A DNA stretch of 64,000 bases from Blastocatellales bacterium (lineage in GTDB: Bacteria > Acidobacteriota > Blastocatellia > RBC074), in contig JBFWQI010000001.1 in assembly GCA_050249535.1 (NCBI GenBank), positions 149,541-213,540 on the forward strand. Reading direction: 5' to 3'. The translations under genes were made by a program, and so were the position numbers. The notes under the pieces were generated by a model. That model was not told the origin of the DNA. It did no database searches and was given only the letters and a program-made list of their open reading frames with translations. Positions 48,647 through 59,014 of this stretch are shown here, one piece after another; the first letter of the stretch is position 1; each line of letters begins with the position of its first letter.

Positions 48647-51600
48647 ATGAACCACCTCAACACGCCTCGAGGAGGCGATGAAAATCCGTATGTCGGCCCC
48701 CGGCCTTTCGAGACCGGGCGACGGCTCTTCGGCCGGGACAGGGAGACGGAGGATCTCTACTACCTGCTCAGCGCTGAGCGGATCGTGTTGCTCTATTCGC
48801 CGTCGGGCGCAGGCAAGAGTTCGCTGATTCAGGCCGGCCTTGTGCCGCGCCTGGCGGGCAAGTTCGATGTCTGGGGACCGACGCGCGTCAATCTGCAACC
48901 CTCCGGCGAGTTGCCCGCGGGAGTCAATCGTTATGTCAGGAGCGCCATGCTCGGGCTGGAGCAGGGCATACCCGAATCGCGCCGCCGCCCGGAGTCTGAG
49001 CTGGTCGGGCTGTCGCTGGCGGATTACGTCAGCGGGCGTCCGCGCAGGCGATCCGCGCCGGACAACATTGTGATCATCTTCGATCAGTTCGAGGAGATAC
49101 TGACCGTCGATCCGCTGGCGGTCGAGGCGAAGAAGGAGTTTTTCAATCAGCTCGGCGAGCTTCTGCTCGATCCCCGCATCTGGGCGCTGTTCGCGCTGCG
49201 AGAAGACTATCTGGCTCCGTTCGACACGTACGCTGAGATGATTCCGACGCACCTCAGAAACCGGTTTCGACTGGATCTGCTCGGGCGTGAGTCGGCGCGC
49301 GAGGCGATCGTCAATCCGGCTCGCGACGGCGGCCGCGAATTCGCCGATGAGGCCGTGGAAAAGCTGGTCAGCGATCTGGCGACGGTCAAGGTGCAACAGC
49401 CCGACGGGAAGTTCATAGACCAGCTCGGACAGCACGTCGAACCTCTTCAGCTTCAGGTCGTCTGCCGCCGGCTCTGGGAGAGGATGCCGGATGAAGACAG
49501 GCGCATCGATCTCGAGGATGTCCTCGAACTCGGCAACGTGACCGAGGCGCTGTCAGGTTATTACGCCGGTGAAGTCGGAAAACTGGCCGCGGGCGATGAC
49601 CGGACCGCTCGCGAGATCAGGGAATGGGTCGACGAAAAGCTGATCACTGCGGACGGCATCAGGTCGCAGGTGCTGCGCGGCGCCGGACGGAGCGAGGGGC
49701 TCGACAACGATCTGATCGCGCGGCTGATCAACACCCACCTCATCCGCGCCGAGCAGCGCGTCGGAGCGGTCTGGTACGAACTCGCCCATGACCGCCTGAT
49801 CGCTCCGATCAGAGAGGACAATCGCCGGTGGTTCGATTCGCATCTCCATCAGGTTCAGAAACTCGCCAAGATCTGGGGGGCGCAGGATGAGCCGCCGGGG
49901 CTTCTGCTGGCGGGGAAGGAGCTCGAGGAGGCCCGGCAATGGGCCGCCCGAAACGATCGGATTCTAGATCTCGAGCGCCGGTTCATCGAAAAATCGACCG
50001 TCCGTCAGGAGCAGATAGAACGCGAGCGCCGTCAGGCGATCAGGCAGCGCAGAATGCTCCGAATCGTGAGCGTGCTGACGGTCCTTGCGATCGCGGCTGC
50101 GATTGTGGCGTTCTGGCAGATGCGTGTGGCTGAACAGAAGGAGCGGGATCTGCAGGCAAGTCTCAGGACTTCGCGCGGTCTGCTCTACGTCGCCAGTCAG
50201 TTGCAGGCATGGGAAGCGTACGACGCCAGACAGTATTCCCAGGCCGCCGAGTATCTGGAAAGCTCCATGCCGGACGCGACGGTTGGAGGTCCCGATGTCA
50301 GAAGTTACGACTGGTATCTGCTCTGGCGGTTGATGCACGACGAAAAGCAGACTCTGGCCGGCCATCGTTCCAATGTCACCTCTGTCGTCTTCTTTCCCGA
50401 CGGGCGGACTGCGGCGAGCGGTGATGCCGGCGGCGAACTGAGAGTCTGGGATACGGCTTCCGGAAAAGAAGTGCGGACGATTGCGGATGCCTCCGATTCG
50501 ATCAGCTCGATGGCGCTATCCGGCGATGGAAGAATGCTGGCTGTCGGCGGAACGAAAGCAGTAAGGCTCTTCGAGACAACGAACTGGAAGATGATCAGGG
50601 AAATTGCGGCCATTCAGTCCCCGGCCCTCTCGCTTGCATTCGCGACCGGCGGGAAGATGCTGGCCTCAGGGCATGCCGACGGCACCGTCGTGCTCCGGAA
50701 TCCGGGAGATGGAAGTGAGCTTCAACCGCGCCTTGAAAAACATGACGCCGGCGTGATCGCGGTTTCATTCTCGCCGGACGGCAATTTCCTGGCCTGTGGC
50801 GATCTGGACGGCACAGTAAAGGTGTGGGATGTCGGGAACGGAAATCGACGGCAGGAGGCCTTGCTCCTGCTTCAGACCACGCTCACCTCGCTCGCATTTT
50901 CGCCGGACGGCAGCAAGCTGGCGATCGCATACGGAGCCGGCATCATCAGCCTGCGGAATGCGGCTGACCGCCGCGAAATATGGAAGACAACAAACGGCGG
51001 AGCTATCATCAACACGATACGGTTTTCGCCCGACGGTAAACTGCTCGCCTCCGCGTCGGTGGACGGGAGCATCAGGCTGATCGATGCGGCGACAGGCACT
51101 GAAGCGCGGGCGCTCAAGGGCCATCTCGCCAGCGTCAGATCCTTTGCCTTCTCTCCCGATGGGCGCTCGCTGGTCAGCGGAAGCCACGATCATACCGTCA
51201 GGATCTTCGATCTGACGGCGCTGCCTGAATATCCGAAACTTTCCGGACACGACAAGGACGTCATTGCCGTTCGCTATTCCGCCGACGGTCGCATGATCGC
51301 GAGCGGAAGCGAGGACGGGACGGTCGCCCTGTTCGATGCCGGGAGCCGCAAGTTGCGCTGGCGATCAGAAGACCAGGGATCGCCGGTCAATGCGATAGCG
51401 CTCAGTCCTGACGGGAGCCGTCTGGCAGGCGGCGCGGGCGACGGGAAGCTCCGCTTGTGGGATGCCGCGAACGGATCGACGCTCTGGCCTCAGCCGCAGG
51501 TCCACGGCGAAAGCATCAAGTCCGTCGCTTTTTCAACGGACGGAAAGTCGCTGGCCAGCGGTAGCGATGACGGTTCGATCGTGATTCACGCGGCGTCTGA

Positions 51601-56979: not shown

Positions 56980-59014
56980 CACAACTTCCGAAGCCTCGAT
57001 GGCCGGTCTGAATCCGTATATCGGTCCGAAGCCCTTCGAAACGGGTCGCCGTATTTTCGGGCGCGATCGTGAGACAGAAGACCTCTACTACCTGCTGAGT
57101 TCCGAGCGGATAGTGCTGCTGCACTCTCCCTCCGGGGCAGGTAAGAGTTCGCTGCTTCAGGCCGGACTCATCCCCCGACTGGCCGGGAGATTCGATGTCT
57201 GGGGGCCGACGCGCGTCAATCTCCGCCCGCCGCCTGATCTCCCCGCCGGCGTCAACCGATATATCCGCAGCGCCATTCTGGGATTCGAGGAGGGGATACC
57301 TCAAAGCAGGCGTCGAAGCGAAGACCAGCTCAATCAGATGACGCTGGCCGAATATGTCAATAACCGGCCGAGGAGGCGATCGGCTCCTGAAAACATCGTA
57401 CTGATCCTGGACCAGTTCGAGGAGATCCTCACCTCCGGTCCGCTGGAGATTGCAGCGAAGCGCGAATTCTTCTCGCAGATCGGCACGCTGCTGCTCAATC
57501 CCAGGATCTGGGCCATCTTCTCGCTTCGCGAAGATTATCTCGCCCCGCTAGATCCATATTCCGGCTATGTCCCAACGCACTTCAAGAACCGGTTTCGCCT
57601 GGACCTGCTGACCCGTGAAGCGGCACTCGAGGCGATCGCCGGCCCCGCTTTGCAGGGCGGCCGCGAATTCACTCCTGAAGCTGTCGGAAAAGTGATCAAC
57701 GATCTCTCGACTGTCAAAGTGCAGCAGCCTGACGGATCGTTCATCGATCAGCCTGGCGAATATGTCGAGCCGTTGCATCTGCAGGTTGTCTGTCGCCGGC
57801 TCTGGAATCAGATGCCGGGTGACGACCTCCGGATCGATCTCGAGGATGTGGTCAATCTCGGCGATGTGTCGGAGGCGCTGTCCGGATACTATTCGTCCGA
57901 AGTCCGCGAAATAGCCGGCGGCGATGATACCCTAGAGCGAGAAATCCGGGAGTGGGTCGGAAACAGGCTGATTCGCGCCGGCGGAATACGCGGCCAGGTA
58001 TTGAAAGGGGCAGGCAAGAGTGAAGGACTGGACAACGACCTTATCGCTCAACTCGTCGATGCTCACCTTGTCAGGGGTGAAGTGCGCTCCGGTGCCGCCT
58101 GGTATGAGCTGGCTCATGATCGTCTGATCGAACCTGTCAGATCCGACAATAATAAATGGTTCGATGACCACCTCCACAAATTTCAGAAGGTTGCGCTGAT
58201 CTGGAATGCCAACGGCAACCCTGACAGCCTGCTCCTGCTCGGAGCGGATTTGAACGAGGCGAACGAGTGGAAGCAGTCGAATGCAGACAGGCTGACCGAA
58301 GTCGAGAATAAATTTCTTGAATCCTCGAACGCAAAACAGTCGGCAATCGATCAGAGGCGCAGCCTGCGAAAAATGAAGGTCGCCGGATGGGTCCTGGCCG
58401 CCGTGGTGCTCATTCTTTCAATCCTGGGTATTAATCTCTGGCTGGTTTATAAGCAGGTGGTGGCTGCCTGGTCCGAAGCGAAAATTCAAAGCGAACTCGC
58501 CAGTCAGCAGAAAATAATCGCTGAATCCAACATGAGGCTGGCGCAGGCTGAAGAGAAGAAGGCCAGGGACCTCAGCGAAGCTGCTCGCCAGCTCGCAGCG
58601 CGCGAACTTGCGCTCAAGCTGCAGAGCCTCGCCCGGCAGAAAAAACTCGACGAGGTGAGCGAAGTCATCGAGTCCATCAAGATAATCGCAGACAATGAAT
58701 TCAGATTCTCGGTCTCTGTCGCCCCGGCCGACGCCGAAGGGACAGGATTCGATACACTCTGGTGGATCGAATTACACCCGAAAAAGGAGTCGCTCGAAGG
58801 GAAGGCTGAAAAGATCGCGAGGATTTATTACATCCTCAATCACGAATCCTTTTACCAAAACCTGCGCGTCGGGCTGCCACAGAACAATTTCTTGTACAAG
58901 TATCGCGGATGGGGCTGCCTCGAAGAGGTGATGGCGATCGTCGAGTACAAGGATCCGAAGACTGCACCGTCAATCTCGTTCTTCGATCAATGCGCTGAAT
59001 GGAAGGAAAAATAG
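56966..59014 (+). CDS. Second STAND-type NTPase, paralogous to the 48647-52150 gene. It has a transmembrane helix, a coiled coil and an unknown C-terminal domain of about 110 aa in place of the WD40 repeats.
   Basis: MAGLNPYIGPKPFETGRRIFGRDRETEDLYYLLSSERIVLLHSPSGAGKSSL is about 80% identical to the first NTPase over roughly 400 aa, with Walker B ENIVLILDQFEE. A transmembrane helix (VAGWVLAAVVLILSILGINLWLV) lies at nt 58378-58452. A coiled coil of about 70 aa (SELASQQKIIAESNMRLAQAEEKKARDL...) follows. The start is ambiguous: 56966 overlaps the upstream gene by 14 nt, 56999 is the MAGLNPY start, and the ORF-track start is 56936. Confidence 0.75.
   Translation: MTGSDTTSEASMAGLNPYIGPKPFETGRRIFGRDRETEDLYYLLSSERIVLLHSPSGAGKSSLLQAGLIPRLAGRFDVWGPTRVNLRPPPDLPAGVNRYIRSAILGFEEGIPQSRRRSEDQLNQMTLAEYVNNRPRRRSAPENIVLILDQFEEILTSGPLEIAAKREFFSQIGTLLLNPRIWAIFSLREDYLAPLDPYSGYVPTHFKNRFRLDLLTREAALEAIAGPALQGGREFTPEAVGKVINDLSTVKVQQPDGSFIDQPGEYVEPLHLQVVCRRLWNQMPGDDLRIDLEDVVNLGDVSEALSGYYSSEVREIAGGDDTLEREIREWVGNRLIRAGGIRGQVLKGAGKSEGLDNDLIAQLVDAHLVRGEVRSGAAWYELAHDRLIEPVRSDNNKWFDDHLHKFQKVALIWNANGNPDSLLLLGADLNEANEWKQSNADRLTEVENKFLESSNAKQSAIDQRRSLRKMKVAGWVLAAVVLILSILGINLWLVYKQVVAAWSEAKIQSELASQQKIIAESNMRLAQAEEKKARDLSEAARQLAARELALKLQSLARQKKLDEVSEVIESIKIIADNEFRFSVSVAPADAEGTGFDTLWWIELHPKKESLEGKAEKIARIYYILNHESFYQNLRVGLPQNNFLYKYRGWGCLEEVMAIVEYKDPKTAPSISFFDQCAEWKEK

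Follow-up and report, generated by a model that had tools for sequence, protein, structure and literature searches.

Gene content and domain architecture of the locus

The DNA analyzed here, referred to throughout as the window, is a stretch of 64,000 nucleotides (nt) from contig JBFWQI010000001.1 (positions 149,541 to 213,540 of the forward strand; GenBank assembly GCA_050249535.1) of a Blastocatellales bacterium of the Acidobacteriota phylum. On its forward strand, four co-directional genes (g1 to g4) encode, in order, an nSTAND1 NTPase, a gingipain-like (C25) cysteine protease fused to a TIR domain, a CHAT protease fused to a SIR2-like domain, and a second nSTAND1 NTPase. The intergenic gaps are 23, 30, and 19 nt when g4 is read from the ATG at 56999, which gives a protein of 671 amino acids (aa). 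Other ATGs lie upstream at 56936 (692 aa) and 56966, and in L080, a metagenome contig of independent origin, the corresponding start codon is the one called for the g4 homolog, likewise with a 19-nt gap. A scan of the locus for promoters and terminators found fewer sites than in shuffled controls. The original prediction for this locus, made from the letters of the sequence alone, had described the same four genes and spacing, which are confirmed here, and all of the domains that it named (nSTAND, WD40, C25, TIR, CHAT, and SIR2) were matched in a Pfam profile search. The catalytic residues that it proposed for the two proteases, His266/Cys326 in g2 and His221/Cys268 in g3, are conserved across homologs.

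One genome per GTDB species was scanned for relatives of g3, which were confirmed at 474 places. We compared 77 loci from Acidobacteriota, many Chloroflexota, Myxococcota, Gammaproteobacteria, and Actinomycetota, searching them by tblastn with the domains of the window and clustering all of their open reading frames (ORFs).

The g1 protein (48647..52150, 1167 aa) matches nSTAND1 (PF20703) at aa 14-386 with an E value of 7.6e-39, and WD40 with an E value of 2.4e-116 in approximately 11 repeats, found at aa ~660-1160 (50624..52126). In the g4 protein (56999..59014), the nSTAND1 domain (PF20703, E 2.9e-35) is followed by a transmembrane (TM) helix, a coiled coil, and a pYEATS-like domain, the match to pYEATS being weak (E 0.0011) and obtained when the C-terminal fragment was searched in Pfam. 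A homolog with the same architecture (P0337) is 45% identical to g4 over its full length. The NTPase domains of g1 and g4 share 67% identity, and both proteins retain an intact Walker A motif, GAGKS (K57 in g1 and K49 in g4), and an intact Walker B motif, hhhhDQFEE (D146 in g1). A single strongly hydrophobic helix lies directly after each NTPase module, at aa 473-490 in g1 (50063..50116; IVSVLTVLAIAAAIVAFW, hydropathy 2.5) and at aa 461-478 in g4; in g1 it is preceded by an Arg-rich stretch, RERRQAIRQRRMLR.

This arrangement in g1 of NTPase switch, TM helix, and WD40 sensor is the canonical architecture of the nSTAND1 proteins that are partnered with g3 homologs. Exactly one hydrophobic helix, at aa 455-535, is present in 55 of 59 complete nSTAND1 partners, and WD40 propellers follow the TM helix in 50 of the 59. 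Lys and Arg residues average 5.4 in the 15 residues before the TM helix and 2.6 after it, with the count before the helix exceeding that after it in 51 of 55 homologs. Because the proteins have one TM helix, an ATP-dependent N-terminal domain, and a positive-inside charge bias, the C-terminal modules of g1 and g4 are predicted to be extracytoplasmic, which would place the NTPase domain in the cytoplasm and the WD40 or pYEATS sensor outside it. The TM helix had been recognized in the original prediction, but its consequence, a sensor predicted to lie outside the cytoplasm, unlike those of Avs-type systems, had not been drawn.

Among g4 homologs (P0266, P0282, P0255, P0272, P0293, and P0301), the module after the TM helix varies and can be a TPR domain, an FGE-sulfatase (lectin-like) domain, a GH19 chitinase/lysozyme-like domain, a multi-TM DUF4337 domain, a TPR-CHAT combination, or PF27016. 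This variety is consistent with a sensor outside the cytoplasm, without proving that location. The TPR-CHAT version of the nSTAND1-TM protein would put a cysteine protease across the membrane; a periplasmic position is also that of CHAT in DdvA (8rot), an anti-sigma factor.

The g3 protein (54874..56979, 701 aa) consists of a CHAT domain at aa 81-340 (55114..55893; Pfam E 3.5e-26) and a SIR2-like domain at aa ~383-685 (56020..56928; SIR2_2, E 2.7e-14), and its AlphaFold model has a pLDDT of 84.7 and a pTM of 0.82. The family is large, with upwards of 1650 protein clusters of full-length homologs; nearly all of the top 120 are proteins of ~700 aa with CHAT and SIR2_2 domains. In a Foldseek search of the PDB, the CHAT part matched Csx29, SAVED-CHAT, DdvA, and separase, and the SIR2-like part matched the SIR2 domains of ThsA, KomC, and DSR2. 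The CHAT residues His221, Gly222, Ser267, and Cys268 are each present in 70 of 70 g3 homologs; g3 thus has the His-Gly...Ser-Cys dyad together with the Csx29/SAVED-CHAT-like fold of a clan CD protease.

The catalytic residues of the SIR2-like domain are replaced. In HMMER alignments, the catalytic His of the KxHG motif of SeThsA (7uxt), BcThsA (6lhx, 8bto), and the KomC-type SIR2 (9v0g) aligns to Phe552 of g3; in ThsA numbering, H152 aligns to F552 and N112 to S500. Position 552 is Phe in 68 of 70 g3 homologs, Leu in one and Tyr in one, and is never His. Position 500 is Ser in 57/70 and Asn in 5/70, and the GAGxS NAD loop is degenerate in the family, where it reads G-P/T-D-L. Inactive mutant forms in the PDB alter the equivalent His, in 9v12 (H to A), 9xvc (H146N), and DSR2 H171A. 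A register shifted by two residues, which would make N498 and H550 catalytic, was considered and rejected: Gly553, which aligns to the Gly of KxHG, is invariant, and His550 is found in only 39/70 homologs and is Gln550 in the window protein. The catalytic His and Asn and the GAGxS loop that characterize a SIR2 NADase effector are therefore not found in g3. The motifs TEDDF, LFLGFxxD, and SHVGVQ of the SIR2 family are invariant, which indicates that the domain is under selection. With the catalytic Asn and His replaced, the SIR2-like domain is probably a pseudoenzyme, acting as an adaptor, an oligomerization module, or a ligand-binding domain, rather than a second NADase. The claim of the original prediction that TIR and SIR2 are both NAD+-degrading effectors would accordingly hold for the TIR domain, whose catalytic Glu is intact, and is contradicted for the SIR2-like domain by Phe552 and Ser500.

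The g2 protein (52174..54843, 889 aa) begins with a protease module at aa 1-470 (52174..53583), which matches Peptidase_C25 above the gathering score (E 1.2e-6). Its AlphaFold model (pLDDT 84.9) shows a disordered Pro-rich linker at aa 492-522 and an all-beta, Ig-like sandwich at aa ~526-660 (53749..54153), which matched complement MG and Caf1M-like sandwiches by Foldseek and was also delimited by alignment. These are followed by the TIR domain at aa 678-791 (54205..54546; TIR_2, E 4.8e-17), and by a C-terminal tail domain of three strands and a long helix at aa ~813-889 (54610..54840). Neither the Ig-like domain nor the tail matched a Pfam family at E ≤ 1. Foldseek against the PDB matched the protease to the gingipains Kgp (6i9a, 4rbm) and RgpB (4ief) at E values of 1e-9 to 1e-8, and the TIR region to MyD88 and the SPARTA TIR. 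The catalytic dyad, His266-Gly267 (52969-52974) and Ala325-Cys326 (53146-53151), is invariant among 25 homologs from the loci, 24 of which match Peptidase_C25; in 82 database homologs, His266 and Gly267 are invariant and Ala325 and Cys326 are at least 90% conserved. Like g3, g2 therefore combines a clan CD dyad, here His-Gly...Ala-Cys, with a clan CD fold, here that of Kgp/RgpB. The TIR domain has both the TIR fold and the catalytic glutamate expected of an enzyme, Glu748 in the motif YCEQEW, which is kept in 64 of 64 TIR-bearing homologs, and it is predicted to be active.

The protease of the g2 family, which has more than 4300 matches, is constant at ~470 aa, and the part C-terminal to it is variable. 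It is followed in homologs by nothing, by a tail domain of ~90 to 150 aa, or by a coiled coil, and in P0204 and P0222 by a trypsin and a non-specific endonuclease. TIR is present in 5 of the 25 C25-like homologs from the loci and absent from the other 20. The Ig-like sandwich and TIR occur together in an acidobacterial subfamily that includes g2 of the window, the sandwich only in this TIR-bearing subfamily, and since many TIR-less homologs end in the same tail domain as g2, this segment looks to have been inserted between protease and tail. From the alignments, TIR appears to be swappable cargo and not a fixed part of the system. A constant module with swappable toxic cargo is a pattern typical of conflict systems, which suggests that TIR is here an effector rather than an obligatory signal generator.

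Conservation of the core pair and variation around it

Only three gene families recur in the 77 loci: nSTAND1 (75 loci), CHAT-SIR2 (73), and C25-like (35). Among the 70 CHAT-SIR2 genes with at least 1.5 kb of sequence downstream, 65 are followed by an nSTAND1 gene that starts between -200 and +1800 nt, with a median gap of 2 nt and 31 overlapping pairs. The exceptions mostly have the NTPase gene just upstream of CHAT-SIR2 (L003 and L074). The adjacency spans at least five phyla. On the evidence of these sequences, the core unit is a CHAT-SIR2-like gene followed by the gene for an nSTAND1-TM-sensor protein, the two being predicted to be translationally coupled. Of the 34 loci whose flanks reach at least 8 kb in both directions, 19 have a C25-like gene, placed immediately before CHAT-SIR2 or immediately after the NTPase gene; it encodes the gingipain-like protease, a frequent but optional third component.

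The window is thus a composite, in which g1 encodes the canonical WD40 sensor, and g3 and g4 form a pair in canonical order whose NTPase has a short pYEATS-like ectodomain. A module of the g3-g4 type, CHAT-SIR2 followed by nSTAND1-pYEATS, is found as an isolated two-gene unit in L081. All four genes recur on contig L080, with order and flanking genes as in the window. In the closest genome (L003), whose g3 is 82% identical, g1, g2, and g3 are found at the same chromosomal site without g4; a GH3-like glycosidase gene with a signal peptide is in its place (L003:12151-14187), followed by a 268-aa ORF, and the flanks are as in the window, with outer-membrane barrel and P-type ATPase genes. Since the GH3 gene occupies the position of g4 between unchanged flanks, g4 was either gained in the lineage of the window or lost in that of L003. 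The arrangement of two sensors, two proteases, and two NADases that had been proposed as a unit is therefore not one: the core is CHAT-SIR2-like and a single nSTAND1 gene, and L003 lacks g4. The co-localization itself, which had been put forward as a conserved module, stands. That four unrelated genes lie next to each other by chance can be dismissed for all practical purposes, given the core pair in 65 of 70 loci from at least five phyla, the identical four-gene order in L080, and the three-gene order in L003.

Tandem pairs of CHAT-SIR2-like and nSTAND1 genes are present in L010, L018, L046, L047, and L076, and several metagenome-assembled genomes have two or three separate loci (L057/L059, L061/L070/L077, L065/L068, L050/L060, L045/L064, and L053/L079). 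These tandem and multiple copies suggest paralog expansion with different sensors, which is typical of diversifying conflict systems.

Two accessory ORF families accompany the C25-like gene in part of the loci. Family f266 (9 loci; L032:8190-8990, L050:18247-19047, L039:19202-20080) lies directly after the C25-like gene in Chloroflexota, and in Acidobacteriaceae and Terracidiphilus, family f213 (7 loci; L023:9134-9802, L017:9300-9944) separates the C25-like gene from CHAT-SIR2. The proteins of both families terminate in a hydrophobic helix with many small residues, and neither family had a Pfam match at E ≤ 1. Their likeness to EACC1 as described, with its TM helix and small-residue patch, and to the tail of g2 is loose and falls short of established homology. 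Four loci (L004, L007, L008, and L020) come from binchicken co-assemblies labeled "uncultured Heliobacteriaceae" or "Heliomicrobium"; their g3 homologs are 60-81% identical to the acidobacterial protein and their neighboring genes are of acidobacterial type, and judging from these genes the labels look wrong or the contigs mis-binned.

The locus is chromosomal, with a TonB-type outer-membrane barrel gene upstream and a cbb3-oxidase maturation cluster downstream. The upstream region (40395-48613, + strand) encodes a 1416-aa protein with SpaA_2 prealbumin-like repeats and a 1312-aa CarboxypepD_reg/OMP_b-brl_4 outer-membrane barrel; these envelope genes are co-directional with the locus, an association that is kept in close relatives only. 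The downstream region (59029-63040 and beyond, - strand) encodes a heavy-metal P-type ATPase (CcoI/FixI-like), a 68-aa ORF that is CcoS-like by position, and a FixG-like ferredoxin, and the cluster continues with DsbD-like, FixO, and COX1 genes in L001 and L080. Its synteny is kept in L003 and L080, and it does not belong to the conflict system. Farther upstream in the window are a 2089-aa protein (14931-21200, + strand) with Sortilin/BNR-like, bacterial Ig, and NHL/teneurin-type beta-propeller repeats, and a second BNR/Sortilin-like protein (4082-6949).

A possible outside-in pathway and its alternatives

The hallmarks of conflict systems are apparent in the sequences of this family: sensors and effectors that vary between members, and several paralogs within one genome. 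We take the locus to represent a real and widespread variant of the STAND/caspase-like conflict systems, with three notable features, namely a sensor predicted to lie outside the cytoplasm, a putative SIR2 pseudoenzyme as the invariant partner of a protease, and a second protease with apparently swappable cargo. We give a probability of about 0.5 to the reading that the genes form an operon-like locus of a widespread conflict system (for immunity or programmed death) that has a transmembrane STAND NTPase at its center and works in the manner outlined below.

The ectodomain would sense an envelope or extracellular cue, and ligand binding would lead to NTP-dependent oligomerization of the cytoplasmic nSTAND1 domains at the membrane. 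The dead SIR2-like domain of g3 would dock on this NTPase platform as an oligomerization adaptor, so that CHAT domains are brought together and activated by proximity, as in the apoptosome. Induced proximity on STAND oligomers is how caspases are activated, and ThsA, DSR2, and SIR2-HerA use their SIR2 domains as oligomerization modules. Across 65 gene pairs (L003-L079), pairwise identities correlate between the SIR2-like domain and the NTPase (r = 0.87) more strongly than between CHAT and the NTPase (0.74) or CHAT and the SIR2-like domain (0.71), a weak hint, confounded by common phylogeny, that the SIR2-like domain contacts the NTPase. Active CHAT would degrade cellular targets directly, and may also process the gingipain-like g2, possibly in the Pro-rich linker at aa 492-522. 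Such processing would set both the second protease and TIR free, leading to NAD+ depletion and then to growth arrest or death. In the window, g1 and g4 would probably be two alternative sensors feeding one CHAT-SIR2-like protein.

More speculatively, the family could be a bacterial "outside-in" hybrid of death receptor and NLR, with a swappable ectodomain, an NTP-driven oligomer, a two-step caspase-like cascade, and a SIR2 pseudoenzyme adaptor in place of the Death-fold; we hold this broader formulation to be possible but doubtful. Its ectodomains may be WD40, pYEATS, lectin-like FGE, and GH19 modules, and candidates for the cue are phage adsorption, competitors or predators, and kin/non-kin surface molecules. 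The family is abundant, and its variable sensor is placed beyond a TM helix and coupled to two caspase-superfamily proteases. If the topology and the cascade are true, this would be the first bacterial receptor-type (outside-in) STAND signaling to caspase-like executioners and an example of a SIR2 pseudoenzyme as adaptor, and it would bear on the evolution of apoptosome-like and death-receptor-like logic.

Several observations weigh against a conflict system that works in this way. The topology of the sensor is derived from hydropathy and charge bias, and which protein cleaves which, like the part played by the SIR2-like domain, is inference only. The latter domain keeps the invariant polar residues E565, D566, D567, D570, H627, Q631, R607, and R611, and these leave room for non-canonical catalysis. 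The co-variation of the SIR2-like domain with the NTPase is confounded by common phylogeny. Recruitment of g2 would have to be explained with no EAD or Death-like adaptor domain detected. The surroundings of the locus are housekeeping genes and not a defence island: the window contains genes for EF-G, RelA/SpoT, ABC-F, G6PD, glycogen debranching enzyme, and lactate permease. A scan of IMG/VR viral contigs with the g3 profile found no relatives, and tblastn of g3 against plasmids gave only partial matches, to CHAT alone or to SIR2 alone and of less than 30% identity, with no full-length homolog. Given this housekeeping context and the lack of viral relatives and full-length plasmid copies in these searches, the locus is not a classic defence island.

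The same context favors a non-immune explanation, in which the proteins carry out transmembrane signaling and regulated proteolysis for envelope stress, development, or cell-cell recognition, comparable to TM anti-sigma factors with a periplasmic CHAT domain (DdvA) or Ser/Thr kinases with extracellular propellers. The chromosomal setting with synteny conserved in related genomes, the outcome of the viral and plasmid searches, the predicted extracytoplasmic sensor, the enrichment of the family in Acidobacteriota, filamentous Chloroflexota, and Myxococcota, and the presence of DdvA among the Foldseek matches of g3 all fit such a role. It is, however, difficult to reconcile with swappable toxic cargo (TIR, trypsin and endonuclease), with highly variable sensors (WD40, TPR, FGE, GH19, and pYEATS), and with paralogs in tandem and at several sites per genome in a patchy phyletic distribution; furthermore, Pfam identified no DNA-binding or sigma/anti-sigma output domain. 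We regard a non-immune role as unlikely.

How the TIR and SIR2-like domains are interpreted separates the remaining possibilities. If the system were Thoeris-like, the g2 TIR would make an NAD-derived messenger, the dead SIR2-like domain of g3 would bind it, and CHAT would be switched on. The intact catalytic Glu of the TIR, the non-catalytic family motifs that the SIR2-like fold mostly keeps, as expected of a binding module, and the precedent of type IV Thoeris, in which signaling from TIR to a caspase-like protease is established, are in line with this scheme. The CHAT-SIR2-like and nSTAND1 pair is nevertheless kept in most loci without a nearby TIR, and so whatever the SIR2-like domain does throughout the family cannot require a signal from TIR; the C25-like gene is absent from ~44% of the well-flanked loci, only 5 of 25 C25-like proteins have a TIR, and the TIR sits in the variable cargo position that elsewhere holds trypsin and endonuclease. 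These counts make the messenger scheme improbable. Still more so, to the point of being very improbable, is a model with two NADases, in which TIR and SIR2 both degrade NAD+, each is checked by the protease to which it is fused, and both are released after the NTPases activate the proteases. The SIR2_2 and TIR_2 matches and the ThsA-like fold on which it draws are real, and the ThsA models of PADLOC do match weakly, but the SIR2 His is replaced by Phe552 (68/70) and the Asn by Ser500, the glycine-rich loop is degenerate, mutants of the equivalent His are the inactive forms 9v12, 9xvc, and DSR2 H171A, and TIR is missing from 20 of 25 C25-like homologs. For "SIR2" calls in defence-gene surveys, the catalytic residues should be checked before NAD+ depletion is assumed.

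Comparison with known systems

With PADLOC, the window gave weak domain-level matches to ThsA (E 3.9e-9), ThsB (E 5e-3), and SAVED_CHAT and no system-level model for the locus; a HEAT-ARM match is spurious and due to WD40. NCBIfam gave nothing specific, and a literature search found no paper describing the CHAT-SIR2-like and nSTAND1 pair. The view that the arrangement matches no named, characterized system is upheld to that extent, with the reservation that the general class of nSTAND1(+TM)+propeller proteins is already in the data of Kaur, Iyer, Burroughs, and Aravind (eLife 2021, PMC8195603). The resemblance to ternary systems that had been suggested is not borne out. The vWA-MoxR ternary system is defined by a MoxR AAA+ ATPase with a vWA protein and a VMAP or iSTAND (Kaur et al. 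2020), and was rejected as a candidate, there being no MoxR, vWA, or VMAP in the four proteins or the flanking genes. The EAD/EACC1 systems (Kaur et al. 2020) are also not recognizable, with no Pfam match to EAD or EACC at E ≤ 0.01 in the four proteins, a result compatible with distant homology, and no gene for a small TM protein 5' of g3.

Avs/AVAST and bNACHT share with the window a STAND NTPase switch, a repeat-type sensor, a cell-killing effector, and predicted trigger-driven oligomerization. Avs, however, is a single cytosolic polypeptide with an N-terminal effector that senses phage proteins in the cytoplasm, whereas the window has separate effector genes and a sensor beyond a TM helix. 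To our knowledge, all characterized prokaryotic STAND immune sensors (Avs, bNACHT, and CARD-NLR) are cytosolic and recognize phage proteins inside the cell. No Avs or bNACHT model of PADLOC matches the window at E ≤ 0.01, and the locus does not belong to Avs/AVAST.

The SIR2 proteins ThsA (type I Thoeris), DSR2, SIR2-HerA, and KomC resemble g3 in their SIR2_2 fold and in the T-E-D-D-F and L-F-L-G-F-x-x-D motifs, and are its best structural matches, but g3 is without the catalytic Asn and His and has no SLOG, HerA, or tail-tube sensor partner. Lacking active SIR2 residues and a SLOG domain, it is not a type I Thoeris protein. Type IV Thoeris (Rousset et al.) has in common with the window a TIR domain, a caspase-superfamily protease, and a cell-killing output. 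It consists of two genes, in which the TIR is the sensor and signal generator and the protease is activated by N7-cADPR; there is no STAND NTPase, whereas in the family of the window the NTPase is obligatory and TIR is an optional cargo on a gingipain-like protease.

The apoptosome and the bacterial Apaf-1-like and CARD-NLR-gasdermin cascades combine, as does the window, a STAND NTPase, WD40 repeats, and caspase-family proteases, with two proteases per operon. The window differs in having no CARD or Death-fold adaptor and no gasdermin, in an NTPase that is of the nSTAND1 and not the AP-ATPase clade, and in spanning the membrane. A 2026 preprint that surveys STAND proteins covers nSTAND clades and also bacterial Apaf-1-like STANDs that have a caspase-like protease at the N terminus, and does not mention the system of the window.

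The source data of Kaur et al. (2021, PMC8195603) hold 278 "nSTAND1+TM+BetaPropeller" entries, a version that is not discussed in the main text. Typical arrangements are "TIR+DrHyd -> nSTAND1+TM+BetaPropeller" and the EACC1-linked "CASPASE+nSTAND1+TM+BetaPropeller"; "CASPASE+SIR2", "Gingipain", and "Peptidase_C25" were not found in the supplement tables, and the Oscillochloris entries there proved unrelated to the locus in the window. The window has an NTPase with intact Walker motifs, a sensor module after a TM helix, and an adjacent effector gene, and like the nSTAND1 systems of that study it combines the same NTPase clade and nSTAND1+TM+beta-propeller architecture with an effector gene immediately upstream and a link to the caspase superfamily. 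It departs from them in that no EACC1 or EAD was found in it, in that the caspase-like CHAT is encoded apart from the NTPase and joined to a dead SIR2-like domain, and in the addition of a gingipain-like protease with variable cargo.

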